Under the pieces are notes generated by a model. That model had not been told where the DNA came from. It saw only the letters and a list, made by a program, of their open reading frames with translations, and did no database searches. A DNA stretch of 63,968 bases, counting the filler, from Neolecta irregularis DAH-3 (taxonomy: Eukaryota), in the NCBI GenBank assembly GCA_001929475.1. It is 3 parts of 3 records of this genome, joined end to end, with 100 filler letters (N's around TTAATTAATTAA, not from the genome) between each part and the next. Parts side by side here need not be neighbours in the genome. Positions count along the whole stretch, not along the records: positions 1 to 31,903 come from LXFE01000286.1; 2 more parts are not named here. The stretch is one strand, 5' to 3'. The number at the start of each line of letters is the position of its first letter. Position 1 is the stretch's first letter. The position numbers were made by a program, and so were the translations under genes. Positions 1 to 25,000 of the stretch are shown piece by piece.

Positions 1-3000
1 CCCCGCTCCCCCCGCTTCCCCCGCAGATCCGCACCGTCGCCTTCAACGCCCCGCTCCCGCAGCACTGCCTCGACGATGACGGCACCCCCGCCGCAGACTA
101 CCCCCGCAACAAAATCCGCACCGCCAAATACACACCCCTCACCTTCGTCCCTAAAAATCTCTGGTTCCAGTTCCACAACGTCGCAAACATCTACTTTCTC
201 TTCATCGTCATCCTCCAGATCTTTCCCATCTTTGGCGCCTCAAATCCAGGCCTCGGCGCCTTGCCCCTCATCGTTATTGTCACCGTCACCGCATTCAAAG
301 ATGCCATAGAAGACTGGCGCAGAATGCTCCTAGACATCGAATTAAACAACACTCGCACCTACATCCTCCACTACTGGCACAACGTAAACGTCACAGACGA
401 AAACATCAGCCTCTGGAGACGTGCTAAAAAGGCCACTACCCGCCTCATACGCTGGTTGATCAAAAAGAAAAAAGGCAGAGATCCATACTCACTCGATAGA
501 ACATCAACCCTCCAGTCCCATTTCTCAGACCTCGGCCCCAGACACTCCATCTCCTACAACATGGTCCCCCTCTCAGGTTCAACCCTCAATACTGACCCGT
601 CCCAAAAAATAAAAACCAAATCAGTTATCGATCCCAATAGACAGCCCTCTCACATGGCAAAATTCAAACCAGACCACTGGAAAAGCGTTCGTGTCGGCGA
701 CTTTATCCTCCTCCGCAACAACGACCAGATCCCCGCGGACGTGGTCGTCCTGTCAACCTCAGACGCAGACGGCGCTTGCTTTGTCGAAACAAAAAATTTA
801 GACGGCGAAACAAATCTAAAAGTCCGCCATGCCCTAAGATGTTCCCAGGGCATCCGCACCGCCGCAGACTGCGAACTCGCCACCTTTATCATCGAAAGCG
901 AAGGCCCAAGTCCAAACCTCTACTCTTACAACGGCGTCGCAAAATGGAAAGAAAATGATCCATCCTTCCCAGACGGAATAGACCAAATGGAACCAATCAC
1001 TATCGAATCAATGCTCCTCAGAGGCTCCTCCCTCAGAAACACTGAATGGGTCATTGGCGTCGTCCTCTTTACCGGCACAGAGACAAAAATCATGATGAAC
1101 TCGGGCGATACTCCTAGTAAACGTAGTAAGATCTCTACAGAACTCAACTGGAATGTACGCTTCTCCCCTCTTTTGCCTCCTAACTCTAGGTCATTGTCAA
1201 TTTCATGATCCTCTTTTGCATGTGTTTTGTCTCTGGCATCGTCGAAGGCGTCACATGGAGTAAAGGCACAGGGTCTCAAGGCTTTTTCGAATTCGGATCA
1301 ACAACTGGAAACTCGGCATTGGACGGCTTTGTCACATTCTGGTAATTTTGCCTTCTTCACTGTTAATCGTCAGGACTTGCATCATTCTATTCCAAAATCT
1401 CGTCCCTATTTCCCTCTACATCTCTATTGAAATCATCAAAACTCTACAGGCATTCTTCATCTATAGCGATATCGACATGTACTATGAACCCCTCGATTAC
1501 CCTTGTACCCCAAAATCGTGGAATATTTCGGACGATCTAGGACAAATTGAGTACATCTTTTCAGACAAAACTGGCACACTCACGCAAAATGTCATGGAGT
1601 TTAAAAAATGCACAGTTAATGGTGTTCCCTATGGCGAAGCGTATACAGAAGCAATGGCTGGCATGCAAAAGAGAAAAGGCATCGATGTCGTTAAAGAAGC
1701 CGCACTCGCGGTCGAACGCATTGCACACGCAAGGGAAGAAATGCTTTGCCTGCTGGATAAGCTTTATCAAAATCCCTGGTTTGACGAATCCGCTCTAACG
1801 TTTATTTCACGTCAATTCGTATCAGACCTCCTAGGCGAGGGATCTCCTGAACAGCAAAATGCAAATCGCGATTTTATTTTAGCTTTGGCCTTGTGTCACT
1901 CGGTATTAACTGAACGAGTCTCGGATCATCCAACTCGAATCGCTTTTCATGCTCAAAGTCCCGATGAAGCCGCTCTCGTAGCCACTGCGCGTGATCTAGG
2001 GGTTTCGTTAATTGAACGGACAAAAGATGGCGTGGTGTTGGATGTCTTGGGCCAAACTATAAAAGTCGAGGTTCTCAATCAGCTCGAATTCAATTCATCG
2101 CGAAAACGTATGAGTGTGATTGTTCGTTTACCAGATGGTAAAATCATGTTGTACTGTAAAGGAGCAGACTCGATCATCTATTCCAGACTCGTACCCGGCC
2201 AACAACAAGAATTAAGAGTTAAAACTGCTGCTGATTTAGTGGAATTTGCACAAGAAGGTAATGTCTAGCCTATATGATCATCTGCCAACTCTCTAGGCCT
2301 TCGAACGCTATGTATTGCCAAACGGGAGTTGTCTGAACAAGAGTATTCCTCTTGGTGCGAAGACTACGAAAAGGCTGCTTCGTCTCTAGCCGATCGGGAG
2401 GGAGAGCTCGAGAATGTCTCAAATGCTATAGAGCGTGAGCTCTATTTGATGGGTGGTACAGCCATCGAAGATAAACTGCAAGACGGTGTTCCAGATGCGA
2501 TTCAACATCTTTTAGACGGCGGCATCAAACTTTGGGTCCTTACCGGTGATAAAGTCGAGACTGCCATAAACATTGGTTTTGCTTGCAATCTTTTAGGAAA
2601 TGAGATGAACCTGATCATGCTTCAAATTGATCCAGACGATGGAATCGAACAAGCAAATGCCATGGTTCTAAAGTACCTCGATGAGTACTTTAATATGAAG
2701 GGTACTCCTCAAGAGCTTGAAGAAGCCAAGAATAATCATTCACCGCCTGCACCGACTCATGCTCTCGTTATAGACGGGGACGCGCTCAAACTGGTTCTTG
2801 ACAAGGACGTTGAATCGAAATTTCTCCTCCTTTGCAAGCAGTGCAAAGCCGTTTTGTGTTGTCGTGTTAGTCCGAGTCAAAAAGCCAGCGTGGTGAATAT
2901 GGTCAAGCATGGCTTGGATGTAATGACTTTATCTATCGGAGACGGTATACATCCTCTTATTCGTAATTAACATTAGGCGCCAACGATGTGGCAATGATTC

Positions 3001-4186
3001 AACAAGCCAATGTGGGAGTTGGGATTGTAGGCGAGGAAGGACGGCAAGCAGTCATGTCTGCAGATTACGCAATCGGACAATTTCGGTTTCTCAGTAAACT
3101 TATTCTTGTTCATGGACGATGGTCATATCGAAGAATTGCAGAAACTGTCGCCAATTTCTTTTACAAGAATATGGTTTGGACATTTACACTCTTTTGGTTT
3201 CAGATTTATAACCAGTTTGATGGATCGTTTTTATTTGATTATACGTATGGCTATATCGCTTGCTTTAAAATCTAAGTCTACAGTTATATCCTTCTTTACA
3301 ATTTAGCATTCACTTCTGTCCCTGTCATCGTTATGGGTGTTCTTGACCAGGATGTCAGCGCTAAAATCTCTATGAAAGTACCTCAACTTTACCGTCGAGG
3401 GATTCTTCGTCTAGAATGGACACAAAAGAAATTCTGGAAAGTTTTGGCTGTTTATCTTTTACTAATTTTTCAAGGATATACATGGCAGATGGCTTTTATC
3501 AGTCACTCATCTGTTTCTACTTGCCCTTTCTAATTTTTTACAAGGCTGGCTTCGCGACAATGTCTGGTCGTCAAGTCAATTCTGCAGAGGAAATTGGAGT
3601 GTATGTCGGTTGCATCGCCGTCTTTGTCGTCAACGCATATGTCATGCTTAATCAGCAACGTTGGGATTGGCTATTCATCCTCCTCAACTTCTTGAGCAGT
3701 TTCCTCATCTTTATCTTTACTGGATTTTATTCCCTCTATCCTGGAAACCATGCATTCTATCATACTGCCAGTCATATATTCACTACTATCGATTTTTGGG
3801 CTGTCTTCGTTTTATCTCTGGTCACTTGTCTCCTTCCCCGTTTTACTGCAAAGTATCTTCAAAAGGTCTATTACCCCTTTGACTCAGACATCATTCGCGA
3901 GCAAGTCTGGCTAGGAAAACTTAACGAGAATTCTAGTCAGAACATGAGTATGGAGGAAGTGAATAGGACTCACGATGTATACTTGAATTCAGCGAGAATG
4001 TCTGACCACAGCAAAGATGATCACACATTTGTGTCGTCCAGAGCAGCCAATCATACACATAGCAAAGCGGATTCTAAAAACTCTGCGATAGTTCCTGATA
4101 ACGGGACTTTTGCAAGTTCGCAAACGTATCAGACAGAAGATGGTCCCCTGCATAACAACGCCTCTTCTGAAGCTCTGCACCTATAA
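1..4186 (+). CDS. dnf1: P4-type ATPase phospholipid flippase (Dnf1/Dnf2-like), 5' end truncated by the window, 6 introns
   Basis: Frame is open from base 3 ([12 protein letters not shown]). Motifs: DGETNLK, PISL, DKTGTLT (phospho-Asp), [15 protein letters not shown], and GDGANDV rebuilt across an intron. Introns 1155-1189, 1342-1373, 2258-2296, 2945-2976, 3245-3283, 3437-3474. Confidence 0.95.
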
Positions 4187-4433
4187 TATGAACAATTTGG
4201 ATGGATGTCAATATAACGGCATGGCTCATTGTCAAAAGACCATACTTGGCATATAATTAGCAATGTTTTTGTGTTTTTCAGCGTTCTATATCCGCAAATT
4301 TGTCTGGCTTTGTTTCCTATTTTTAATGGGCTTGAGTAATTTGGGTTTGTCTTGGATTATTTGGGGTGGCAAATGGGTTGTTTTCTTTCTCTGTTTATGA
4401 AGGCTGCGTGCAATGAAGGATATTTGTATAAAC

Positions 4434-5597
4434 TCAATACAACCAATATTCCTTTGACAGCCGTACTATTCTTTCGACATGGCGAACCGCTGCGGCTGTA
4501 TGCTGAAATCCCATTCCATTATTAGTTGATTCATTCTCTGACTCGAGACTTGCATAATCAGTGCATGAAAAATAAGAAACCTTCTGCTGACAACGATCAC
4601 GTTTATCCATATCCGCAGCTACCGTAATACCTATCCCTTGAGCAAATAACGAGCAAATATTTTCTAGGAATTCCAGAAACTGTAGGAGAGTGAAGATATA
4701 TCTCCAACATTCCTTACTTTAGTACTATCTTTTTGTTCTGCTGACTTGAAAATGTATCCTAGCAAAGAGGAACCGATCTTGGTGTCGGTATCGGAGATCA
4801 TGGGCGTGTCCAGGACGGAATATCGAAGAAAGAGGAAGGCATTGTCGAGTGTCTTGAGATGGGAAATCATCACAAAACCATATCATTCTTCTACAAGTGA
4901 TGCTCGTCAATACTCAAAATTGTGAGCGTTGGGTGTCCGGACTTGCCTCTCGGGAGGCTTCACTGGGTATATACGATCGCGCTTCAGGAATACGGGCAAC
5001 TACGTATATATTGCTCGGGTGTGGCCTGTAGGAAATATTTCAGCGAACAACGGAGTTGCCAGGAAATGGTATGACGGCTAAACCGTGCAGATAGCTAGAA
5101 TGTTTGTTGAGGGAACGTTCTTTCAACCCTGATGTAATAATAGCAAGCGTAATTTCGTCTTCAAATATTGATAAAAGTTGGTCCTGGCTAGATTGTTGTT
5201 TTACCGGATAGTCCTAATTCGAAAATCGGATTAGATCTCGATAATAACTTTCATTGATCCATTCTTGTGTACTTCACCTTATGAGCACGAGTCGGTACTT
5301 CCATAACAATCCCCAATCTGTTTTTTGGTCATTCAACCATGCTCGTTTACTAGTAACATACATTACATTCTGACCCTTGACCGCTTATGTACTCATCCAC
5401 TTGTCTACAAATGGTCTCAATAGATTGATTTCTAGAATTCGTACTTATTTTTCGGTAACTTACCAACTCGCGTTCAGCTCTCTCTTTCCGTTTAAGAGCC
5501 CAAGACAAAAGTTCATCCCATTCGGATGTCTACGCGAACACCCAAATGTAGATTAGCTCTTGATAGAAAGATCCTTAACATATCTTTGAACAATCAT
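4434..5597 (-). CDS. Putative multi-exon hypothetical protein (exon structure unresolved)
   Basis: Short coding-like minus-strand segments (TSEWDELLSWALKRKERAEREL; DQLLSIFEDEITLAIITSG; ECWRYIFTLLQFLEFLENIC; AAAVRHVERIVRLSKEYWLY*) are separated by GT..AG intron-like spacers. No family recognised, and not all phases could be reconciled. Confidence 0.35.
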
Positions 5598-5684: not shown

Positions 5685-7949
5685 TCAGACCAACCCCAAA
5701 AAGATAGTGCTGTATGGCACGTCTTGTCGAACTGTCAGGACGTGTTTTGTTGCCAACACTTACGGATTAACATGCATCACTCTCTTTGACATACGCAAAA
5801 CATGGCAAAGTGCTTGGGAAGCAACGTTCTTATTACTCGTCTGGAATGGGACAAGTTCGGAAAACTCTGCGAGTGGTGACTTGTCATATCGCGATTTATC
5901 TTCAGCAAGTTTCGTCCGCACATATTCAAGGAAGTTTTTGCAGTCATGTTCCATCATTTCTTGGGTTCCTTGCATAACTACAGGCACAAGATCTACATTT
6001 AGCAACCCATATACTGGAAAATAGCACCATCTTGAAAAACTTCGAAATCATCCAATACTACAGCGTCGTCAATTGTCAAATCTGCAACGTTTGAAGTAGG
6101 ATCAGCGGAATCCACTCTTGCAAGACCACCCAATGGCGAGGCAGCCATCTTTGAAGTACGCCCTGAACGTCGACCTTGACCAAGTGGTGTATCAATGTAG
6201 GAAAAGTCTCGAGCATTACTGGTAGATGTAAAACCAGCTGCCGAAACCGAACGGGATTGACCTACTGAATCTAGTCGAGAGCCTGTCATAGTGATGTTCC
6301 ATGGCATAACAATACTTGGAGTTCGATTAAGCGACTCTCCGTCACGTCTTCCTAGTTCGAGATCCTTTGATATATAAGAAAGGAAGACCAGTGAAAAGTA
6401 CATAATTGCCAAGGGGACTGTTGCGATTGTCGTTCTGGTACCCCATACCAATATCGTGATCATCCATCACCTGAGAAAAATGTTCACCACCGCAGCCCAA
6501 GCGCAACTCCTCTGCATTTATGTTGATACCCTCGTCCCGAGTGCGTTTTTTCCCATTTCTCGTAAGTGCATCGTATCCACTGAAAATAAACAGTCTGGTG
6601 AGATTTGGGTGAACGATTTGTCCTCCCCATCCATAAATGTACTTCAGAGCATCATCTTTTGCAGTTAAATTAGCTTGGCGTGCGTCTCTGAGCCCAGTTT
6701 GAGCCTTCATGGCAGAAGAATAATTTTCTCGCCAGTCGAGAAGCTCTCGAGACGGTATTTCAGTTCTAGAATCGACTCTTACTTCCTTCTTGATACGACG
6801 TCGTTTCTGTTGGGGTTGAGCATTTTCTTCGACTTGGCTTTCCCCGAGGGCCATGATATGATCCATCACCGTTGGATTCGTCTCTTTTATTGTTTCTCTA
6901 CTCGACGAGGAACGAGGCGAAAAAGGCTCGCCTTCTAAGAAGCTGTCCATCATCATAGGAACATCGTCAGGATAGTAGGATTCCGTGATCTGAAATCAGT
7001 ATTAGAAAGCAGCACCAGAGAGATCACCTGTGGCACGGCAAATTTTCTTGCTGCTTCAATATGTTCCAGTTTTGCAAGGACAGCTTCATCCTCCTCTGTG
7101 TCTCCGACCTTTTCGATTTCACTCGTTTCAACCTTGCTAGGAAGAACGTTGGGCTTCGTGGAGTTCAATTCTCTGATTAGGCCGTCTGCATCAAACTCGA
7201 AATCCAGTGGCTCCCCTCCAACTAATATATCATCATCGTCGAAGCCACCAAAGTAAGCGCTTCCTCTAGAAATATTAAAGGAGCTATCTATACCGCCATT
7301 GAATGGAATCTCGAGAGAAAGAGGCTGTACAAGAGAAGAGTCTGAGGGGATGCGATCTCTATTTTGGGTGGGAGAGATATCGAGAGATGAGCGCTCACCA
7401 GAGAGATGACCATTGTCATAGATACCGTCCGGTAAAAAGTCTTGAGTGACAAAGTCTACCCCAAGGCCGTATTCCAGAGTGAAAGTTGGATCGTCTTGAA
7501 GCGTAAAATCGATTCTAAAATTAATAGAGCCACTGTCGAACAATACCTCGGTTTAATATTTGGCAAATCAATATCAGATCTGTCTGCAATGGCTGAATAT
7601 TCCCTGTTAAGCTTACTGTGCACATTCGTAACGTCGGCTGCACCAATAAGAGAGAGGATGAGAATAGATGTACTGTATAAGAACCCGCATTGCTGGGAAT
7701 AAATACGGGTCACCCCCACCATTAGATTTGACGATAGCCGGAGTGCAAGAGGTTCCGGAGGTTGGACAATATATTGACATGCTTTGGAGACATCAACGTT
7801 GATAATGTCTCTTTTTTGAATTTTCTTGAAGGACGCCTTACTACCGAGAGTTGCAGCAAGCCTAGTTGATTAGTTGGGATCAAAAATATCTACCAAATGA
7901 TGCTGAAGCCGCCTTTCTGCTTCACAAGAATGTCCTGGGAGTAGAACAT
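5685..7949 (-). CDS. rec8: Meiotic cohesin kleisin Rec8 (Rad21/Rec8 family), 7 introns
   Basis: N-terminus MFYSQDILVKQKGGFSIIW|LAATLGSK...PLALRLSSNLMVGVTRIY resembles fission-yeast Rec8. C-terminal winged helix ASQALCHVLLLATKHVLTVRQDVPYSTI. ExxR separase-type sites (EELR, ELGRR). Confidence 0.92.
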
Positions 7950-8569: not shown

Positions 8570-11500
8570 ATGTCGAATGCACTGGCTGCCGAACATGAAG
8601 ATATCCGCTTGTCCCTACCACTCGAATATCAGAAACAAATACTCAGAGATGTGCGCACCGAAGATGGACTTGTCATTCTGGCCAGAGGATTAGGGCTTCC
8701 GCGAATAATATCAAATCTACTCCATTCTTACGATCGTCCGGGAAATCTTGTGGTCTTGCTCGGCGCGCATTCCAGAGAGGAAGATTGGATTGGAGAGTCC
8801 ATGGCATCAATTGCTTCTGCGACAGATGTAGCGACTAAAGGGCTGCAGATCCTGAATACGGAGTTGACTGGCGTGGAGAAGAGGTACATTGTGCTCTAAA
8901 TGAGTGATTCACAAATTAGAGAGAAACTTTATGCTCAAGGTGGCATGTTTTCAATTACTTCGCGTATTCTGGTAACAGATCTATTGACAAAGCTTCTGGA
9001 TCCTGTGAAGATTACCGGAATAGTCATTATTAGGGCAGAACGGTAAAATACAGCTCGTTTCAGCGTTGATCTCGTAAAGAGTGGTCGCTACTTCAACCGA
9101 AGCTTTCATTCTGCGAATCTTCCGTCAGAATAACAAGGTGTGAATGATTTGGGTCATTTAATTCTTACCTATAATAGGTCGGGTTCATCAAAGCGTTCTC
9201 TGACAACCCCGAGCCTTTCACTACCGGATTTTCTCCGTTGTCAAACATGATGCGGCATCTATTTCTCAGAAAGGTCTATCTCTGGCCAAGGTATCACTCT
9301 CCACAGACCCATTTTCACGATTAGGTACCGCCTTGAAGTTGCCAAATCCCTTGAAAATCGTCGAGCGGAAGTGATCGAACTCGAAGTAAATATTACAGAG
9401 TCAATGCGTGATATTCAAAATGCTATTCTGGAATGCATCGAAGTCTGTCTAGCAGAATTAAAGAGAAGCAATTCACAGGTGGATTTTGAAGAATGGAATA
9501 TCGAATCAGCGTTGCAGTCAGGATTTGAAGCTTCCATCCGACGAGTTTTGGATCCTGTCTGGCATCGTGTGAGCAAGAAGACTCGCCAGATCGTGTCCGA
9601 TCTTACAACTTTGCAGCAAATTCTCCAGTATAAGTCTAAGCTTGGTCACCCGCTGATTATTAAGTTATTTATTAACCTATGATTCCGTCTCATTCAACAA
9701 AGTACTTGATGCTATTCTTGCGACCAACACTCCTGCCCCTGGGTCGACTCGTCAGAACCATTCCCCTTGGTTATTTCTTGATGCTGCAAATATCATCTTC
9801 TCGACAGCAAAACGTCGCATTTTCGGTTCTCTGGAAAACAAGACAGAAACCCTTTCCAACCAAATATCAGAATCAGAAGGCTTGGAAGAATTGCCGAAAT
9901 GGTCAATGCTAGCTGAAGTAATAGATGAGATAGAACATGAATTACATTTTAATCCACCGAGTCCAGGTATGCTCTGTCTTTGAATTTCTTTTTCACTGCC
10001 CAGACTCTGCTAACAACACAATTTTGCTGATGTGCAGCGATGGTCGTACATGTCGTCAAGTGCGACAATTTTTACAAAATATGCAGCCAACGGAGAACGG
10101 GAAACCAGCAAATGCAAAGACAATGATGAGAAGAAAATTGAAGGCATACCGTGAGTGGAAACCCAATTTCGTCAAAATCAAGGATCAACTTTTTAGACAT
10201 GAAGAATCAACTGTCAAACAAGGCATCCAGTTATACTAATACTGAGCTGATTAACCAGTTTCCAGTGGACATCAGAATTATGATCATCGTGGCAAACCAC
10301 CACCCAATAAGCGTCGCCGAGTTCGCGGAGGAGGTACAATAGCAGCTGCATCGTCTACCCACCCTATTAATATAAGGAATACTGCCATTTGCATGGAAGA
10401 TGGTGAAGCGACGTATATACCCATGAAGATAGTGGATTAATCATTGAGACGGTTGGATGACTTTCTGGGAAACGATGACATCGTTGCGAAGGAAGAAGTA
10501 GCAGTGGATCTTCTCGAACACATCGAAGATTTCTTCGAATTATACGATTATGATGAACTTGTCGTCATCCTTCCTTATGACGGGGATATGGATGACCGAG
10601 CATTAGAAGAATTGCGGCCAAGGTTTATCGTCATGTACGAACCTGAACCGTCTTTCATCCGACGTGTAGAGGTATCTTTCAAGTCTGCAACAACATTCAT
10701 CCTAGGTTTACCGCTCATCTCACCAAAATCGAAGCCTCCGAGTATATTACATGTATTACGGCAGTTCGGTTGAGGAGCAACGCTATCTATCAGCTGTCCG
10801 CCGCGAGAAAGATGCATTTACTCGTCTTATCCGGGAAAAAGGCGTTAGTGATTTCATAAAATCTGCTTTTTAAGCGGTAGAACATGGCGATAGTCCTAAC
10901 TCAAGACGGAGCATCAATGGACGATCCCCAGAACATATTTCTGCGGACAATTAATACAAGAATAGCCGGTGGCGGTCGAATAACAGCAGCTTCTGAGCCT
11001 CCTCGGGTTTGCGTCGACCTGCGAGAATTTCGGTCATCATTGCCATCACTTCTTCATGGACGAAACTTGACCATTGTGCCTTGCATGCTCACTGTCGGTG
11101 ATTATATCATATCTCCGACTATGTGTATTGAAAGGAAATCAGTGAAAGATTTAATTTCTTCGTTTCGGGATGGTAGGTTGTATACCCAATGTGAGACTAT
11201 GTTACTGCACTACAAAACACCACTCTTGTTAATTGAATTTGATCAGAACAAGAGTTTTAACCTTGAGGCATACATAATTCTGTTCGCACAGCTGACAAGA
11301 AGCCATTCGCAGATATGACATCATCGATAGGATCTACTGATCTTCAAACAAAACTCGTCTTGCTTACTCTAGCATTCCCACGAATTAAGATTATCTGGTC
11401 ATCCAGCCCCTATGCAACTGCAGAAATATTCGAAGAGCTAAAAGTACATCTACTTAGGCGTAGTCAACTGACCGCAGAAAAACCATGACGAACCCAATCC

Positions 11501-11750
11501 AGTCAAAGCAGTTAGTATAGGTCTTGAAGAAGGCGAAGAACCCACGAATTCATACAATCAAGCGCCCCAAGACTTTCTCCGTTCGATGCCAGCGATTAGT
11601 TCCAAGAATTATAAAAATTTAATGCTGGAGGTTGAAAATTTACGAACCCTGAGCAATATGTCACAAAGACAGATTCAAAATATTGTGGGATTAGAAGCTG
11701 GGCGCGCAGTGTACAAATTTCTCAACAAAGATTTCCGAGGTCTTTCGTAG
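8570..11750 (+). CDS. rad16: XPF/Rad16/Rad1 structure-specific DNA repair endonuclease, 12 introns
   Basis: N-terminal [17 protein letters not shown] helicase-like region. ERCC4 nuclease motifs [29 protein letters not shown]-terminal HhH region. Confidence 0.95.
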
Positions 11751-13070: not shown

Positions 13071-16000
13071 ATGCTCCGATCAATACCATTTCCGTCTTTA
13101 CTATCAACGAATTCGAACAAAGCTATCCCGATATCAGTGTCATTGCCGTTATTGAATAAGAGAGAGTGGACACACGATGAAATTTGCCGAGCCTGGGCAA
13201 CGATCTTGTGCGGGATCGTTGGGGAAACCACGACTGTTGTGTTTCGCTGCGACGAAAACATGTATTGTATAAAAGCGGGAGAAATTAATCATGTCGACGC
13301 CGAAGAACCCCCGACAGCGATCTTTGTTTGGATCTTCTGTTTCGATAATTTCTGACTATAGTCATCATATGCCCCATCATTGTTTCTAGCAAATCACCAT
13401 TATCCGATGTCACTCGAGGTATTGGTTAAACACAATATTGGAGATTCTAATCATTTAGCCACTCACTTTAGCTATCTTTGTATCCAAGGAGGCGATCAAA
13501 TTATGTTCATCGGCTGCTCTTTTGGACCACATATCAGCTCGTAATATCCTATACCAAATGTCTCATTTTCTCATTTCTGATTCGCCTAATGAGATTCCCT
13601 CACCTAGTTTGTCTATTTTGAATCATGATCCGAAATCGTACAGTAAAGGCCTATGTCTTCACGGCCTTTTCGAAGATGTTGCGAAGAAACACTGCAACAC
13701 AATTGCACTCGAGTTCAACGATACAACGAGGATTTCATACTTCGATCTCAATCGGCTCTCCACCAATCTAGCGAACATTCTCATTCACTCTTATGCTGTC
13801 ACTTTAGGAAGCGTTATTCCGTTATTATTCAATCAGTCTATAGAATTTTATATTTCTGTTCTGGCAGTACTCAAAGCTGGAGCAGCATGGTGTCCCTTGT
13901 CGCCGTCCTTTCCTCAAGAGCGTTTATCATTTGTGATAGAGGATGTTTCCGCCAATATATGTATTACGAGTTCTCAGTATACAACTAGAATCAACATCCC
14001 TGTTCTCGAAATCGACAAGGTTGACTTTACCTATGGTTTTTCTGAATCTCCGCCGATAACTGTGCAGCCCGATGCACTTGCATACATCATTTACACTTCG
14101 GGAAGTACCGGAAACCCGAAAGGTGTACGAATAACACATTCGAACGCAGTTCATGCGATATTAGCTCATCATTGTTTCTTCGAAGAGTTCAGCCAAGGCA
14201 GATTCCTCCAATTCGCTTCTCCGACGTTTGATATTTCGGTTTTTGAATTATTCATCACATGGAGTCTCGGGTGGACATTAATAGCTCATACTCGATCGCA
14301 TTTATTATCGCGACTATATGATATTGTTATCAAGTCTCGTATATCGCACCTCGAATTGACACCTACAGTTACAACGACTCTGTTGCGAACTCTGGAAAAT
14401 ACTCAAGTCAAAATGCTTCTTACGATTGGGGAACAGCTTACCGATGAAGTCGTTAAGATTTGCTCAGATGCAAATGTTCGCTTATACAACGCGTACGGAC
14501 CAACTGAAACTGCAATGCATTGTTCAATAGCTTCAAATTTTACCTCCAACACGAAAGTGATCAACATCGGTGTACCCCTTTCAACTTGTTCAGCATACAT
14601 AATGTCCCCTACAGAAGAACGATTGCTTCCACGTAACTGGGTTGGAGAACTTGTCATTGGTGGCCCCCAAGTCAGTGCCGGCTACACTAATTACCAGTCG
14701 CATGCATTCTTCACTCACAGAAGTCAGCGGTTGTATCGAACTGGCGACCGAGCTCGCTTTCTCGAGAATGGAACTATTGAGTTTCTCGGTCGACTCCATG
14801 GCGATTCACAATTCAAAATTTCTGGACAGCGAGTCGAGCTTGGAGAAATAGAGTGTGTTGTTCGTGATATCACCGAGAATATTGTGATGTTTATCGAGGG
14901 GACCTTAGTTTGTTTTGTGTTGGAGAAGTTGACTGAAGCAGATCAGTATGCAAGGAAGAAATTGCTGGATTACATGATCCCAGTATTTCTAAAAATTGAT
15001 CGATTTCCTCAGTGTGAATCCGGGAAGCTAGATCGCAAGCGCTTGATTGAATTCTATAAAGATAAACAAATATTTCAGGAAAGTGATGATTCGAACTGGG
15101 ACGATCGATTGAGACTAATGCGCAAAATTATCTCTGAGGTATCAGGAGTTCCTCAAAATCGTATATCTAAGGATTCTTCATTCATTAGCCTTGGTATCGA
15201 TTCGCTCAAGGCAATCCTAGTTGTTCAAAAGTTGCAAAATGAGTTGGGAGAAGCATTTAATGTGGCGCAAATTCTCACCGCTTCAAACGTCTACAATCTC
15301 CGAAATTGCTCTACCATCGTTGCGAGTCCTACCCGAATTTTGTATTCGGATCTTTCGTTACAAGTTAAGTTATTGATTGATGACTCTAACGTGGTTGATG
15401 TTCTACCTGCTACGATGGTACAGGAAGCAATGATTTCTGAGAGCCTTAAGGATTCGAAGAAATATTACAATTGGGTTAGACTAGATATCGGACTTGGTGC
15501 TTCTGTTCCAGATTTCAAAGAATCTTGGAAAGCTATTGTCAATGCTAATGAAGTGCTAAGAACTGGGTTTACCGTTTGTCCTAGTACAGTCAATTCACCT
15601 AGTCACTACATGCAAGTTATTTATTCATCGGATCGATCAAATTATGAAGAAATATCATGCGGATATGTCGAATTGGACAATTTATATCGAGATCATCGGG
15701 ATGAACAACTCCTTACACTGGAGAATATGCATCTTCCAGCATTGAGCATTCGCATTTTCACTTCTCCCCTATCACGTACTGCATCACTAATGATTCACCA
15801 CGCTATCTACGACGGTTGGGCAATGGAGATCATTCTCAATGACATAAACAGATATATTACCACTCGAAACATAGTGCAACGCCCTCAATTCAGACGAGTT
15901 GTTGAGCTTGAGTACGCTATCAATACAGGTATCTCCCGCGATTACTGGAAAAGCTACCTTCACGAAGCCGAGTTTCATGCATTTCCACGTCTTTCGAGAT

Positions 16001-19000
16001 TTGTTCCTGCTAAACCTGTGATTGAAATTAAGGAGAAGAAGTTGAAATTTGAACTTTTGGATATTGAACGACGATGTCGTGAATTGAATATAGCAACTCA
16101 GACGGTCATTCAAGGAGCGTGGTCCTGGGTCTTGTCTTGTTACATCGGTTCGTCGGATATCACATTCGGCTCAGTTGTTTCCCTTCGCACAGGTCACTTG
16201 AATTTAATACCTGATGTAATCGGACCTGCTATCACCACTCTACCTTGTCGAGTCCGTATCCAGGGATCACTGGAAGATCTTTTGTATCAAATACATCAGA
16301 GCAATATCAATATGATAACACATTCTGCAGTCAGCTTACGCCAAATCTGCCAAGATGCTGGCGACAGGTCATTGTTCGATACCGTGGTTGTGTTTCAAAA
16401 AACTACAAATGGGGACAACAAAGGTCCAGTGAAGCAAGTCGATTTTATGGATTACCTCGAGGTATAACATTTTTCGATATAACATATTAATAAACCAGTA
16501 TCGTGTTATTCTTGCCATCCTGCCGTCGGCAAATACTATTACCTTGCGAGTCACTTTCGATGGTGGTTATTTTCCTTCAGAGCATTGTACAGTCATGCTC
16601 GATCAAATTAATTTTTTCATCTCTACCTTCCTCGAAGATTCAAGGACGTCTATGAGTGCAATCACCGAATCGTCTCATATACCAGAAGCACTCCTCTCCC
16701 TTTTGAATCCAAACCCCCAGGTCAAATCAAAACATACCGAATACCAAAACGTGTTCCATCTCATAGACAACGTCGCTACAGGCCTGTTAGTTGATCAGAC
16801 GGCCATTGAATACACTGAAAACTTCGAGAAATCCCCCTTGACTCTCACCTATGGTCAATTGAAGCAGACGTCAGATCGCATCGCATCGCATCTTCTCAAC
16901 AAAGGCCTGCGAAAAGGGGATACCATCGGACTATTTGTCGAGAAATCGCTGCTTGTCTACCCTACAATACTGGGTATTCTTAAAATTGGGGGGATTTACA
17001 TGCCTATTTCAACGAATACTCCAGTTGCAAGGATTCTTTATATGCTTGAGACTACGGGGACAAAAGCATGCTTAACCTCATCAGATTTGCAGCAGTTCCT
17101 CTTGCAAACGCTTGAATGCTCAATTAAGATCTATACCATAAACGATATCCTACAAAATACTAAAATCAAAGACTGTGCATTCCCTGAAGTTGATTTAGAT
17201 GACTTGGCCTATATTATCTTCACTTCTGGTAAATTTCTGATCTCAATTGGCTTTGGCTGACTTGTAGGAAGCACCGGAATGCCCAAAGCTTGTCAATTGA
17301 CGCATTCGAATCTTTTGAACCATATCCTTGTGGTTAAATCACTATACCCTTCCACAACAGACTCGCGTTTTCTTCAGTTTACAGTCCTAAACTTCGATGT
17401 TTCTGTTTTTGAAATTTTCTTCACGCTTTCTCTCGGATTAACTTTATGTGTCGTCCGCACCGATTTAATCCTTCGAGATCTCACGTTCGCTGTTCAATAC
17501 CTGCGTATTACGCATGTCAATCTTACATCGACCATAGCCTCGCTTTTGGAACCATCAAGTTGTCCGGACTTGACTACAATCATTCAAAGCGGTGAAGTTT
17601 TGCAGCAGAGTATACTTGATAAGAGCATTGACAATGGCCTAATCAATGCATATGGTCCCACAGAACTCACTAATATATGCACTGCGAACACTAAAATGAC
17701 CACGACTGTGTATTATAATAATATTGGATGGCCTCTTTCGAACACTTCCGCTGTTATACTTGATGTAGGTGGCAAGACAATGATCAAAGGCGCTCTCGGA
17801 GAAGTGTGTTTTGGCGGGGCTCAAGTTGTATGACTGGTTCGTTTTTCATCCTTCTAACTACAGTTTCGCGGATATGTCAACGGAGGGGTTTTCCAAAATG
17901 AATGCTTCTTTCAGCACCCAAGTCTAGGCCGGCTTTACAGGTCTGGCGATTTTGTTCGTTTTCTGGCCGATGGGTCTATTAATTATGTTTATCGAAGAGA
18001 TGAGCAGCTCAAATTACGAGGTCATCGAATTGAACCCGCGGAAGTCAATTCTGCCATCTCAAAAGCCTCGGAACTCTGTTTGGATGCTTTTACTTTATGT
18101 CTCGACATGACCAACGGTCGTCAATTGGTTACTTTTGTGGTCGTAGTTTCCAAATTATCTGCCTCGGAAACTCGTGTCTTGATCAACAGACTATTCTCTC
18201 AGGTGGACGAAATTTTACCACCCTATATGATTCCCGTCTTCATTATTCCAATCTTAAGGATTCCCACCAGCTCTAATGGCAAAATTGATCGTAAAGCGTT
18301 AGAAGGTCATTTACGTGACATGAGCGATGGGGATTTGGCTGTCTGCTCACCTGCGTCGAATATAGAAAAAGAAACACCCTTCTCTGCAAACGAACAAATA
18401 GTTCGCGGAATTTTATCCAAAATCTGCAACATTTCAGTCGCTTCAATAAAACAATCGACTTCCATATTCAGTCTTGGTATAGACTCTATCTCGGCTATCA
18501 GTCTTTCCGCCCGTCTCTTTGAAAGTGGGTTTAAAAGGCTTGATATCTCACAGATAATGCTCAATCCTACACTTTCCAAAATTGTATATTTGATTGAGCA
18601 TCAAGAGCCTACCAGCAAGCAAGACACTTCTTCGAGCATTGGAAAATCCATATTATCTCTATTTCGTGAAACCCAGGGCCCTTCAGTTCTAGCTCTTCTC
18701 GGTATTCCTTCAGCGGAAGTAGTGGATATTCTTCCATGTACACCGCTGCAGGATGCTATGCTCGCTTCGAGAACTGCTCCAGGGAGCGGCTCGTCTTATG
18801 TCAATCATATGTCATTTTGCTTAAATTCATCTGCAAATGTCACCCGTCTCAAAGCTGCTTGGGAGAAAATCATCAAAATCACTCCTGCATTAAGGACCCG
18901 ATTTGCTATGACGAGCGACGTTCAACATCCCTTTGCCCAGGTGGTTGTTCGGTCTCTTCCTATTCCCTGGATGGCAGTTTCCGTATTCAACAAGTCAGAC

Positions 19001-22000
19001 ATCAAGACCATCATGAAAAGAAATGAGGACAACATTGATACTTCTAATCAGCTGTTTCAGTTGGTTCATTTTGAACCCGAATCTCAAAATATACTAATTC
19101 TATCAATTCATCATGTCTTATATGATGGCTGGGCGATGAGCGAATTGCTCGAAGACGTCATTCGGGTTTATGAGAATGAAGTATTGCCAATTAGACCCTC
19201 AGCACGACAGGCTTTTGAATATTTATTCTCACTCAACCTCATGCAGGCAGATGAATTTTGGATTCGCGAAATGAATAAATGCGAACCCACATTTTTTCCT
19301 GATCTCATTGGACGAAAGGAAATAAATTTGCCAACTACCTTCAGGGTCTTCGATAGATGTACTCTCAAACTTAGTGATATTGAGTCGCATGCCAAGTCAT
19401 CAAGTCTTGCTTTGTTATCTTTATGTCAAGCATCTTGGGTTCGACTACTTTCCGCTCTTACCGGCCAAAAAGATCTGATCTTTGGAAATGTCTTCAGTGG
19501 AAGAACTATTCCAGTCGTGGATGCTGAAAAAATCATTGCACCATTGTTCAACACTCTTCCGATAAGGCTTCGGATTTCGGAGGATATTACCAACCGACAA
19601 TTAGCAAGATCTCTTCAAAAGAAGAATGCAGAGATCCTACAGTACCAAAGCACTCCTCTACGTCGAATCTTGAGCATCACATCTTCGGAGGCTTTGTTCG
19701 ATTCTCTAATCATTCTACAAAAAGACCACAGTGCAAAACAAAAACTTTGGAGTGCACAAGAGGAAATAATGTTAACAGACGTGAGCAATAATGATATTTC
19801 ATTTTCCTTCGTCATTTTGACTTTAATAGTTCCCTGTTGTGGTCGAGTTTTTCCCAAGGCATGATTTCAATGCGCTCGAATTTGTTATTACCGCAAAAAC
19901 TTCGCACATCACCAGAAATGACGCTCAAATTATGCTGACTCAATTGAACAGAATTTTTACTGGATTAATTACTCGACCGGACGATTCAATTTTCGACTAC
20001 GCCAATACTTTTGAGATGGAGCTATTAGCGATATCGAATCCCTTTCCTGCTCCAATTCAGAGTGGGCATAAGCTTCTACATTCTGCTGTAGAAGAATTTT
20101 CCAATACAACTCCAGAGGCGATTGCAGTCCGATTTCTAGGTGATGAGAAACATATTAAGAGTTTTACCTATCGAGAGATCAACGAAAAAGCAAATCAAAT
20201 CGCAGATTGTCTTTCTTCCTTCAAACTACTCCCAGATGACGTCATTGCTATTTTTATGGAAAAGTCGCCTAGATTATACCTTTCAGTGCTCGCCACATTA
20301 AAGGCTGGAGCAGCTTTTTGTTCATTGGATCCAAGTGTTCCGCATAAAAGGATTTGCATGTTGTTATCCCAGCTCGATGCAAAGATTGTTTTAACCAGTA
20401 CAGACTGCAAAGCCATTGAAGCTTTGGAAAGGAGCCCGCATAGATATAACGTGCTTTACATCGACAGATTGGACCTCAGTAAAAGGTCAACACTTAATCC
20501 TGCTATCCAAATCGCGCCTAACAACTTGGCGTACTACACTTTTACTAGCGGAAGCACTGGAATTCCCAAAGCCGTTATGATTCAACATAAGACTGCTCTT
20601 CAAGCTATTCTAGCTTCACAGGTAAGTCTATCCATTAGAAAAAAGGCAACGCTGTTACAGTTCGCAATGCAGACTTTTGATATGTTTATTTATGATATCT
20701 TTTTAGCATGGAACTGCGGAATTTGCCTCGCAAGCTCTGTCCAAAGATATTTGCTCGAAGATCTCGAAGGTGTAATTAATCAATTGGGAGTAACGCATCT
20801 TGATTTGACACCAACAGTCGCTAGCACATTGGAAAGGACACGGGTCCCCAAGATCGAAAGGTTGTTCTGCATTGGTGAAGTCATGAGGACTGACCTTGTC
20901 AATACTTGGAAATCCCATCTCGTTAATTTATACGGACCAGCAGAGTGCAGTATGGTCTCCGGGTTTGCTCTGGCCGATATCTCGAGAAAAGCTGCCAATA
21001 TTGGCAAGCCCCTTTCGACTGTTTCTTACGAAATTCGATCTGATATGGGTTATCTTCTTCCTCTCGGCTCAACAGGATTTTTACATTTGAGCGGTCTGCA
21101 ACTGGCTAGGGGCTATTGGGGCGATGAAAAACTGACCCAGAAACATTTCTATGGCAAAGATCAACATCGTTACGATACGGGAGATGTTGTCCGAGCTTTA
21201 TACGACAATACTTACGAATTTGTGGGGCGCCAGGACGATCAGGTCAAAATCAATGGTCAGCGAGTCGACCTTGGAGAAATAAATTCCATAGTTCAGCAAG
21301 CATGTATGGAAGCTCTTATATCCGTTACTTGCATCATGCAACATCCTCGACGTAAGGCTGATCAGATTGTGACATTTGTAGCGCCCAAAATGATTGTCTC
21401 TGAAGAATGTCAAAGCTCGTACGATTTATCAACCTCCAGAACAGAAGCTGATAGAATTCTCAAGTTCGTTTCGCAGTATCTTCCTTCGTATATGGTTCCC
21501 CAGAGCATTTTATTTCTTGCTGCAATTCCTCTTAGCGGTGCTGGAAAAACGAATCGCCATAGTCTTCGAGACTATTATCAGTTAGCTTCTGTCGAGGAGC
21601 TTACATTCAAAGATTCGACCTCCTGCCGGTCTTGGTCCGAAGACGAAACCGCCATCCGTTGTGAGATTTCACAAATCAGCGGGATGGATAACCATTTAAT
21701 TCAAAAGGATACAAAATTGTATCAGCTCGGAATCGACAGTATTACGGCTATTCAACTTGCTCGTAGACTACGGAACTCTTTCAAACTTGATATCTCTGTT
21801 CTAAATCTTATGAAGGTACAAAATAATACGGTTTGTGCACTTACGATTATAGAGTCCTGATATCGCTGGGATATCTAACGTGTTAAAGAAACTGAAGAAT
21901 CAAAAGGAATCGAGCAAACAAAATTTATGGCTTGATATCTCTCGCAAATTTCAGAATGAAATTGTAATGTTTCCCTATGAACGATTTCGTTTTCAAAACA

Positions 22001-25000
22001 TATACATCAATCGAATTCTTCCGGTCACCATGCTACAACAAGAACTCCTGGCAAATAGTATTCAGAACAATGGCGGCACTTATATCAATCACGTTGTTTT
22101 TGAACTTGCTAAGGGACTCGACTGTGATCAATTAAAAACTTCTTGGACCGCAGTCTTCCGGGCAGTTGAAGTCCTCCGAACCGCTTTCACAGAGTACAAG
22201 ACGAGCATCGCCGAGTATGTTCAAATCGTGTATTCTAGCGACATGCCACTTCCATTCGAAGTTATGGAAATAGCCAGTGCAGACATCTCAGCGTGTCTGG
22301 ATAATCTCTGTTCTCAATTACAATCAAGATTCATCAAGAATCTTTCAACCCCTCCTGTATCACTCAACCTTATCAAGGGTTCTAAATCAACATATCTTTT
22401 GTTTTCTGCTCATCACGCACTCTTCGACGGCTGGGCACTCAAGGCAATTTATAATCGAGTATTTGAGGAATACAATTCTCATACAGTCACGCCACCAGTT
22501 CCAAACGACGCTCTCATCTGGCAATCTATAAACGATGCCCGTGACCTCTCCAAATCGGAATCTGCAAGGTCATTCTGGCAAGCGTCAGCATCAAACTATT
22601 CATATCATAAATTTCCAGATCTGAATCCCGAAATTGTGCAGGATTGCATAACAAAATCCACGAACCACAAATCTTATCTCAAGCTATCTCATGTCGAGAG
22701 CTTCTGCAGAAGCCGCAATATATCTTTCCAAGATATTCTTCAAGCAGGCTGGGCAAAACTTCTTTCAATGTATCTCGGAGAGCAGAGAATTACATTTGGC
22801 ACAGGCAGGCAACACAATTGTTCAAGTGATTGACAGATAGTACGCTCTGGTAGAGACATTGTCCTGGATGCTGATGAGATGTTATTTCCAGCTATTGTAA
22901 CTTTACCAGTCTTTCATGAAGTAAAGGGCTCGAATTCAGAGTTCTTGGAAAAGGTTCACAAATTCAATATCGAGCTAGTACCTTACCGAAACTGTCCATT
23001 GCCTACGCTCACTCGATGGTTTGATCAGTCTCATGGAGCTCCAATTTTTGATACAATCCTGATCTACCAAAAGACTGGAATGCAAGACAAGTCTCGGAAT
23101 CCAGACTTTTGGGAGATTTATGAAGAAAGAGCTACATCCGACGTACGAAGTTATATCACCGAGTTTGCTAATCGGGTTAGTATTCAGTCTCGTTGGAAGT
23201 GTCAGAGCGTAGTGATGGGTCCTTATATTTTTCAATTTCCTTTAAAACAACTGTCCTTCCTTTTGATCAGGCGAACGCTCTTCTTCGCCAATTCGAATGT
23301 TCGCTTATCGACATCCTTGAACAGCCTTATAGCGATGCTAATCGTATTTCCACAGATGTAGCGCCGGATTTAATCTCATTTCGGCCTCCGATAATCGAGG
23401 CTTTTTCCTCCAATATTAATTTTCTTCACGAGTTTGTCGAGAGTCATGCAAAATCGATGCCCAACAAAATTGCGGTAGAGTTTGTAACGGACATCAATGA
23501 CGAGGAACATGGAATTCAAAGATGGTCATATACTGAATTGAATGATCTTGGGAATAGAGTAGCAGCATGGTTACAAAAGAAAGGGCTTCCATTTAAATCT
23601 CCTGTTGGAATTTGCTTTGATAAATGTCCAGAAGCTATCTTCACAATCCTTGGAATTCTCAAATCTGGAAGGGCTTTTCTTGCATTGGATCCTTCGACTC
23701 CGACTGACCGGAAGCTTTTTGTAATGAGAGACTCTCGTGTTCCCTTGGTAATATCATCGAGGAAGCAAGTTGAAGATTTATCGAATACAATACCGACTCA
23801 TCTACTAGCCTCAGTTGAAATTATTCTAGAAAGCAGCACAGTTGCATCTGATTTCACACCTGTTGTAAATCTTTTATCGAGTAGCCCTTCTTATGTGCTT
23901 TATACGAGGTAATTCTATACAACCGGGGTTTTTTTACTGAGGATAAAGTGGAAGTACAGGCAAACCTAAGGGCTGTGTCATTTCACACGAAAGTGCTGTT
24001 CAATACATGTACGCTCTCAGTGACATACTGAAAGGTCAATGGACCGAAAGCTCAAAAGTTTTTTCTTTCGCCTCTTTTCATTTCGACGTCAGTGTTCTCG
24101 AGCAATACTGGACCTGGAGTAATGGCCTAACAATGGCTACTATGCCACGCGACGATTTCTTAGCCGATATGACTCATGCCATCAATACCCTTCGAATCAC
24201 GCACATCGACTTGACTCCTAGTCTAGCTGCTCTTTTAGATCCAGGCGATTTACCGTCAATCCAGATGTTTATGACAGGTGGTGATATGATCAAGCGAGAT
24301 ATAATCAAACGATGGGGCCCTAGTGGCGTCTTATTCAATGCTTATGGTCCGACTGAGGTAGGAAAGCTTCAAGATACTGTTGATACATTAGGCCACGATT
24401 GGCTGCACTTTGGCCAGAAATCTCTCTGAGAACGCCAAATCTTCAAACATTGGAACCGCTTACCCCAACTGTGGGCTACTTATTACAACCACCGGTACTC
24501 CTCCTCATCCTGTACTACAAGGAGCTGTCGGCGAGCTCTGTGTGTACGGAAAACAGCTAGCAACTGAATATATCAATTTACCCGAACTCACAGCTGACAA
24601 ATTCTTGGTTTTGGAAACCGGTCTGCGTGTTTATAGAACGGGTGATCTGGTGAGGTTACTAACAAATGACACTTACGAGTTCATCAGTCGGATAGATGAT
24701 CAGATAAAGTTACGAGGTCAAAGAATCGAGATCGGCGAGATTAATGCTACCATCAAAGATTCAAGTATGAATATTATGGAAGTGGAGACGTTGGTTTTGA
24801 AGCATAAACCGCAAGCGAATGAACAACTCGTATCATTTGTGGTTTTAAAGAACCATGAATTAAATTCGACTTGTGAAGTCATAGAAGATTCAATTTCTTG
24901 TTCCAATGATATACAGTTACTATTGACAGCCTGTCAAAGAACCTTGGCTCCGTACATGGTACCTACTTATGTCTTGGGAATAACGATTATGCCTCTCACC

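Follow-up and report, generated by a model that had tools for sequence, protein, structure and literature searches.

The window, that is, the whole 63,968-nucleotide stretch of DNA analysed here from the early-diverging sac fungus Neolecta irregularis DAH-3, begins with a gene for a P4-ATPase (phospholipid flippase) of the Dnf1/Dnf2 type, which comprises 1,322 codons once six introns are removed. The assignment is indicated by its Pfam domains and by its best matches to fungal DNF-type proteins, where the best-matching homologs are named phospholipid-translocating ATPase or DNF1. Two public runs were found to contain this gene, a DNA run (X1) and a run labelled 'DNA?' (X2), both in the form of contigs only. 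The features of the gene are as follows, with a slash marking exon-intron boundaries here and below.

3..4186, plus strand: P4-ATPase gene, 5' end open at the contig edge
1155..1189, plus strand: intron 1, GT-AG, 35 nt, skipped in X2 contig 9
1342..1373, plus strand: intron 2, GT-AG, 32 nt, skipped in X2 contig 9
2258..2296, plus strand: intron 3, GT-AG, 39 nt, skipped in X2 contig 9
2945..2976, plus strand: intron 4, GT-AG, 32 nt, skipped in X2 contig 9
3245..3283, plus strand: intron 5, GT-AG, 39 nt, from the gene finder and protein continuity, outside the X2 cover
3284..3436, plus strand: upstream exon, ending in TG, the first two bases of the conserved Trp codon (KFW)
3437..3474, plus strand: GA-AG intron, 38 nt, phase 2, from the 38-nt skip in X2, homolog scoring and the intron position in the ortholog L031
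3434..3442, plus strand: 5' splice site CTG/GAAAGT, Watson-Crick pairing with the 5' end of U1 at 7 of 9 positions, all but -2 and +2
3461..3466, plus strand: branch-site motif ACTAAT, read in the sequence; the presumed branch A is 3465, which leaves 9 nt to the end of the intron
3472..3474, plus strand: 3' splice site AAG, the sole AG-ending register among four equivalent X2 cuts
3475..4186, plus strand: last coding exon (G ATA TAC ATG ... stop), from X2 contig 10 and the deposited protein P0001

Elsewhere in the window, an intron-rich gene at 8570-11750 (plus strand) and a long gene at 13260-30317 (plus strand) were observed, which we take to be a Rad16/XPF gene and a non-ribosomal peptide synthetase respectively; several predicted introns end in AAG or GAG. 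A Rad21/Rec8-family gene is located near 7459-7869 on the minus strand. The segment 4920-5030 is a short repeat element to which numerous unrelated contigs of very high depth align in both runs.

The GA-AG intron of the flippase gene

The sixth intron of the flippase gene is a real GA-AG intron. The site reads TTCTG/GAAAGT...ACTAAT TTTTCAAG/GATATAC across 3437-3474, and Pfam PF16212 was found on both flanking exons. The upstream frame ends in KKFW and unspliced read-through runs to a stop at 3531, while splicing out 3437-3474 restores the conserved FWxYMxDG motif. Candidate joins that pair any donor from 3380 onward with an AG acceptor at 3474, 3488, 3502 or 3544 were all scored against 120 full-length homologs, which gave 136 readings, namely 135 stop-free, frame-restoring donor/acceptor pairs and the deposited model P0001. 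Among these, the 3437-3474 join was the top scorer for all 120 homologs and was gapless in 118 of them, with a mean score of 182.8 bits compared with 162.2 for the best GT/GC join (3450-3502, gapped against all 120 homologs) and 151.1 for P0001. The nearby donors GT3441, GC3447 and GT3450 remove 34, 28 and 25 nt when paired with AG3474, none of which brings back the frame; only with AG3502 are they in frame, and then most of IYMADGFYQ is lost and 5-9 alignment gaps appear. The initial annotation had placed a 38-nt GA-AG intron with an ACTAAT branch and an AAG end at these positions, had held that the conserved KFWxYMxDG needs the GA donor since those at 3441, 3447 and 3450 give frameshifts, and had proposed an alignment to orthologs as a check. 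Each of these points is borne out by the sequence, by the alignments above and by the X2 skip.

Apart from its donor dinucleotide, which is GA where the major class has GT or GC at +1/+2, the intron was observed to have the features of that class: G at +1, an AG end, a CTRAY-type branch and a spacing and length typical of this genome. As an example, the distance from branch A 3465 to the AG lies within the branch-to-AG distribution of the genome, and A at -3 of the acceptor is found in 19% of its predicted introns. The motifs do not fit a U12-type intron. The U12-type consensus consists of an RTATCCTT donor and a TCCTTAAC branch, and this intron has the donor GAAAGTTT together with ACTAAT.

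The deposited model P0001 reads through the GA intron and regains the frame via a second intron at 3513-3544. This second intron is false, as X2 contig 10 covers 3474-4411 with no gaps and no other letters. The error swaps out a conserved membrane segment of the flippase, and similar errors may affect other gene models wherever a GA donor is used.

Evidence from the DNA and transcript-like assemblies

In X1, a single contig at a depth of 429 spans 1001-4950 with no other letter and no joint, and the A at 3438 is kept; X1 may be the source data of the assembly and is then not an independent confirmation of this base. In X2, contig 10 (depth 354) skips exactly 38 bases at the GA intron and continues to 4411 without a gap. 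Three letters (GGA) fit either side of the joint, and only the 3437-3474 cut ends in AG. The upstream side of the contig is 27 letters long, or 30 with the ambiguous ones, where the bridging bar of the tool is 31 letters. X2 also skips all four GT-AG introns that it spans at their exact boundaries, and X1 shows neither those joints nor the 38-nt one. Because its introns are missing, we take X2 to be a transcript assembly made from RNA.

X2 is a separate sample from X1 and its spliced contig is without base 3438 itself. The lack of any difference from the genome over about 2,870 exon bases suggests that the X2 sample has the same or a near-identical genotype as the assembly. A search of the X2 contigs over the GA intron found none that covers it and no intron-bearing copy, and the bin depth of 245.7 at the intron is fully explained by the spliced contig. 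The cover of X2 ends 225 nt past the flippase stop codon and has a hole at 3044-3408, which includes intron 5 and the upstream side of the contig 10 break. The initial annotation had asked for a check of the junction in transcripts, and at the level of contigs the transcript-like run gives the answer that it had anticipated.

The same annotation had left open a base-call error at 3438, which is now very unlikely. More broadly, an error of base calling or assembly, or a private allele, with GTAAGT in the functional gene, would draw on the facts that GA is one base from the L031 donor, that X1 is possibly the assembly source, that contigs drop rare variants and that X2 is another sample. Set against this are the A in the X1 re-assembly, at a depth of 429 with no other letter, the near-identical genotype suggested by X2, the removal of the 38 nt in X2 and the four more GA-AG introns with homology support that are described below, as five separate genes would need the identical T-to-A error at +2. 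Even less probable, to the point of being hardly credible, is a skip made without the spliceosome, by a retrocopy, a template switch of reverse transcriptase or editing of the donor to GU. It could appeal to the GGA that fits both sides of the joint and to the unrecorded library type of X2, but the deletion falls at an orthologous intron position, restores the frame and has a branch site and AG at the usual spacing. Furthermore, the joined form is absent from the DNA run X1, and X2 lacks an intron-bearing copy and stops shortly past the stop codon. We know of no activity that edits A to U.

Contig 10 of X2 was observed to start exactly 30 letters before the first base that distinguishes the spliced from the unspliced form, which is the geometry of a fork in an assembly graph, and contig 9 crosses four GT introns unbroken. 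The start position is a weak hint of a competing form, either retained or spliced at 3441. It is possible, though on balance unlikely, that the intron is real but leaky, where a sizeable share of transcripts retains it or is spliced at GT3441 and the GA donor lowers or tunes flippase output; the leaked forms would run into the stop at 3531 or a frameshift. Yeast U2A substrates, which are limited at the second step, also agree with such leakage. However, no X2 contig covers the GA intron, the missing upstream contig hides the cause of the break, and contigs give no levels. Leakage would modify the explanation that we prefer, of an old intron removed at its ancestral boundaries, and would not replace it.

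Origin and recognition of the GA donor

Three flippase ortholog loci (L029, L030 and L031) were retrieved from metagenomes. In L031, a 54-nt intron that reads TTCTG/GTAAGT...CAG/GATTTAC is located at the identical codon position, and no intron was found at that position in L029 and L030, so that one of the three loci has it. The first six intron bases of Neolecta and L031 differ at +2 only. The GA donor is most likely derived from GT in an old intron by a T to A change at +2, a polarity that is read from the GTAAGT donor of this one ortholog and from the general rarity of GA. GTAAGT is the textbook donor consensus, and GAAAGT had been described in the initial annotation as that consensus with only +2 changed. 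The description fits the L031 donor, but GTAAGT is not the consensus of this genome, where donors are weak and the commonest one, GTATGT, accounts for 51 of 757 predicted GT donors and GTAAGT for 13. The site offers a clean natural experiment, namely an old intron with the +2 change that stalls exon ligation in budding yeast.

The GA donor forms 7 of 9 register pairs with U1 in silico, a number that 689 of 757 GT donors (91%) do not reach, as they have at most 6; GT3441, its competitor, has 3. The duplex free energy of the GA donor, -4.0, is slightly weaker than the GT-donor median of -4.4, while its flank score lies in the 86th percentile compared with the 4th for GT3441. The GA donor of Rpa43, described below, forms 5 of 9 pairs. 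The flanks of GC donors were also observed to match U1 better than those of GT donors (mean 3.85 vs 3.07 of 7).

It is highly probable that the flippase intron is old and of the U2 type, that a substitution at +2 turned its GT donor into GA, and that it is nonetheless excised at exactly its ancestral boundaries, so that a full-length flippase results. The ordinary major spliceosome likely tolerates the +2 change, aided by strong flanks and short-intron geometry. Removal of the 38 nt is seen in the transcript-like assembly; for recognition and catalysis we infer the following steps. U1 would bind via positions -3, -1, +1 and +3 to +6, offsetting the mismatch at +2. Under intron definition, a strong branch site and a near-fixed intron length (31-45 nt) would set where the donor lies, and GT3441, which competes from +5, is weak. 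The catalytic core would accept an adenine at +2, and exon ligation would probably become somewhat less efficient, as for yeast U2A. The same +2 tolerance would account for the GC donors of this genome, approximately 5%, as well as for its few GA and GG donors. That the spliceosome tolerates a base other than T at +2 had been suggested earlier, and the suggestion gains support from the X2 removal and from further GA-AG introns in conserved genes.

In yeast, the literature reports that U(+2) pairs with U2 G37 and that its mutation chiefly impairs exon ligation (PMC8022279), and that second-step prp8 alleles relieve U2A (PMC12707134). The U2A reporters share with the flippase donor the same +2 U-to-A change in a major-class intron (PMC4836653, PMC12707134, PMC9177961, PMC8022279). 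However, U2A blocks exon ligation in S. cerevisiae unless suppressed, whereas the Neolecta GA is natural and the suppressor positions checked in its Prp8 are wild type.

It seems improbable that the spliceosome of this lineage has changed, through a variant snRNA or an altered Prp8, so as to loosen the check on +2 actively and thereby allow GA, GG and many GC donors. A U1 search of the genome gave a single match at E<=1, which scores below the Rfam cut-off and whose 5' end is canonical; no variant U1 with a changed 5' end was found among the 41 of 209 candidates scored in this fragmented assembly, where a second U1 copy is possible. The ACAGAGA box of U6 and the usual loop sequence of U5 are in place, and genes for U1-C and for a METTL16-family protein, the loss of which was looked for, are both present ('canonical' is judged here from general knowledge and from Rfam/Pfam matches). 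The U6 gene (L002, C1963:269-417, minus strand) is itself interrupted, directly downstream of the ACAGAGA box region, by a GT-AG intron of mRNA type that is about 50 nt long. The U6 gene of S. pombe is also intron-bearing.

About 475 residues of Prp8 were covered, of which 370 belong to the linker (locus L032:185-1294, C2538). Residues T1565, W1575, E1576, Q1594 and W1609 were checked for changes and are all wild type, and the first RNase H exon is the human sequence but for two conservative changes. These observations speak against a changed spliceosome, while two others speak for it. GC donors form 40 of 797 predicted introns compared with 7 of 5,041 annotated in S. pombe, and the Prp8 linker differs from all 119-120 aligned homologs and S. 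pombe at yeast positions 1503, 1504, 1568, 1635 and 1660, which hardly vary among these homologs. The linker differences are a lead only, as the comparison includes few close fungi and lacks a control for rate. The 1504 change is not a read error because a decayed Prp8 copy (L033, C4303) shares it. A causal role of the lineage-specific linker changes in easing exon ligation is quite doubtful; if true, they would amount to a natural second-step suppressor.

Degenerate Prp8 pieces were noticed on several contigs (C4303, which is L033, and C2568, C1324, C4326, C1195 and C171). In L033, such pieces lie joined to a degraded copy of the 5' end of the flippase gene, which suggests capture of fragments by a mobile element.

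Non-GT donors across the genome and in other species

The assembly consists of 14,182,604 bases in 4,542 contigs. A self-trained gene finder was run on 632 kb of unique sequence, that is, the window and 58 of 60 retrieved stretches (two duplicates of the window were dropped), and predicted 797 introns, 757 with GT and 40 with GC donors (about 5% GC). Among them, the four flippase GT introns are those checked against transcripts. In a 650 kb run with the duplicates still included, most predicted introns were 31-45 nt long, with lengths of 35-38 nt the most frequent, and the branch A was found 7-12 nt before the intron end. A CTAAY tail is present in only 105 of the 757 GT introns.

The pattern G/GAAAGT followed by a CTAAY...AG tail has 22 matches genome-wide (21 distinct) and 49 in a reversed control, which was not composition-matched. 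For G/GAATGT, 19 matches were found against 15 in the reversed control, and for G/GGAAGT 13 (12 distinct) against 25; the comparison patterns gave 33 against 42 for G/GTAAGT and 77 against 16 for G/GTATGT. The raw counts therefore show no GA enrichment over the reversed controls except marginally for GAATGT. Several of the GA-pattern matches either are ordinary GT introns that start 4 nt later or are located outside predicted genes. GA-AG joins were supported by homology at 4 of 21 G/GAAAGT and 1 of 19 G/GAATGT donors, the flippase site included, and a GG join at 1 of 12 sites (RIC1). The sites other than the flippase intron, for which the support is homology, are as follows.

Dynein intermediate chain: GA-AG intron, gapless join; read-through gives exactly 12 extra residues relative to the human protein
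Importin beta: GA-AG intron, gapless join; the anchors are 4 residues apart, the same number as in PDB 4XRI, and the upstream one is a weak alignment
G-alpha subunit, L013 (C457), minus strand: GA-AG intron, gapless join that needs a 3-nt exon
Rpa43: GA-AG intron, ATGT-type donor, gapless, 3 residues between anchors as in S. pombe
RIC1, L043:1502-1538 (C3527): GG-AG intron candidate, 37 nt, gapless in PF07064 (132/133), with no in-frame GT/GC alternative

For the upstream exon of Rpa43, S. pombe is the top solved match. The G-alpha intron is followed by the predicted 3-nt microexon and then by a GT intron. Six more GA candidates were chosen by the gene finder alone. The Pfam join check gave no reading at L007, L008, L021, L024, L025, L116, L117 and L120 and a reading on one side only at L126. 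The search patterns fixed -1 and +3 to +6, so the strong flanks of the other sites are no evidence of compensation. A requirement of GA donors for an AAGT flank was not established, as Rpa43 is of the ATGT type and the Fisher test gives p=0.01 to 0.22 depending on the candidate set.

Scaling 797 introns in 632 kb gives roughly 18,000 introns genome-wide, of which the five supported GA sites form a floor of about 0.03%. When 5-11 sites are scaled by the CTAAY-tail rate, GA donors would reach 0.2-0.4%, an overestimate if GA introns need stronger branches. An unbiased scan, in which each of the 14 non-GT/GC donors bore an identical penalty, found no GA excess at a penalty of -3; of 778 predicted introns, 2 were called with GA, both at known sites, compared with 0-5 calls per control dinucleotide. 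Zero new GA donors in about 790 introns sets an upper bound near 0.4%, assuming full sensitivity; all five supported sites were found at -3 and the one at 3437 was missed at -4 or stricter. GA donors are recurrent but uncommon in this genome, with a share of about 0.03-0.4% of introns.

A tentative reading, to which we give somewhat less than even weight, is that the donor code is relaxed genome-wide, where G at +1 alone is fixed and +2 is T more often than C and C more often than A or G. About 5% GC and 0.2-0.4% GA and GG donors would then lie several-fold above other fungi, in old introns of essential genes. A canonical U1 would suffice because very short introns are measured from the branch site, and possibly because the Prp8 linker changes ease exon ligation. 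If the elevated rate is real, Neolecta, as a relative of S. pombe with a small genome, would provide a system in which to ask why GU is near-universal.

In other species, GA donors are described at very different frequencies. The initial annotation was right that they are very rare in fungi, although they are documented there: Ganoderma lingzhi has 35 GA-AG introns among about 92,100 (0.038%) and 1.85% GC donors (PMC11590231 Table 1), and GA-AG introns are listed for Fusarium graminearum (PMC3577648). These share with the flippase intron the terminal dinucleotides, the location in fungal protein-coding genes and their omission by automated annotation, whereas the Neolecta intron is essential for the frame of a conserved gene and matches the GT intron of an ortholog. 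Compared with Ganoderma lingzhi, Neolecta has about 5% GC and possibly several-fold more GA donors, although its floor of about 0.03% is the same as the rate in Ganoderma. Among 5,041 annotated introns of S. pombe, 7 are GC-AG and none is GA-AG, with the columns of supplement S2 of PMC7072748 taken by their order.

In plants, GA-AG introns form about 0.01% or less, and the GA donor of Trema SYMRK splices at about 95% (PMC10668435). Intron 12 of Trema orientalis SYMRK is likewise old, and it still splices and preserves gene function after a +2 mutation turned its donor into GA. It differs in that it went via GC and is a local allele, whereas in Neolecta GT is found in one intron-bearing ortholog and GA in at least five genes. 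The human FGFR GA-AG alternative donor is used by the major spliceosome and is reported to depend on a canonical site 6 nt upstream (PMC7072748). It is similar in being a GA donor, but the Neolecta bases 6 nt upstream are AT and use of the flippase donor appears constitutive.

GA donors are abundant in Eurytemora and Oikopleura (PMC7072748), with 10-12% of sampled introns in Eurytemora (PMC5714493). The introns of Eurytemora affinis and Oikopleura dioica resemble those described here, since G at +1 and A at +3 are kept, +2 is free, both GA and GG occur and gene models are broken. A at +3 was found at the flippase site and is fixed by the search pattern elsewhere. However, the Eurytemora class forms 10-12% of sampled introns, has an obligate AG before the donor and consists of apparently recent gains, whereas the Neolecta donors reach at most about 0.4% (2 GA calls in 778 predicted introns) and the flippase intron has an old position, shared with L031 (one of three ortholog loci). 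The bases before the donor are TG at the flippase and Rpa43 sites and AG at dynein, importin, G-alpha and RIC1. As a single intron, the flippase site is a known rarity that appears to work like the documented GA-AG introns, of the major class except at +2. The literature search, from which most subscription papers fell outside, found no paper on Neolecta splice sites and no entry in the supplement of PMC7072748; PMC8476143 merely lists the Neolecta genome.

Two further unusual intron candidates were noticed. In an Hbs1-like GTPase gene (L059 minus strand, C2741; 5330-5370 on the reversed stretch), a 41-nt candidate intron can be read as CT-AG or equally as GC-AA, and the gene is predicted to join gapless in PF00009 (92/93) only via this intron. 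Its donor, CTATGT, is the commonest donor of the genome with +1 changed. In addition, a 41-nt GG-AG candidate is located at 57419-57459 of the window (minus strand) in an MA3-domain gene. It has an alternative in-frame GT 12 nt upstream and Pfam is not decisive between the two; the gene finder picks the GG-AG candidate at every penalty when flanks are scored.
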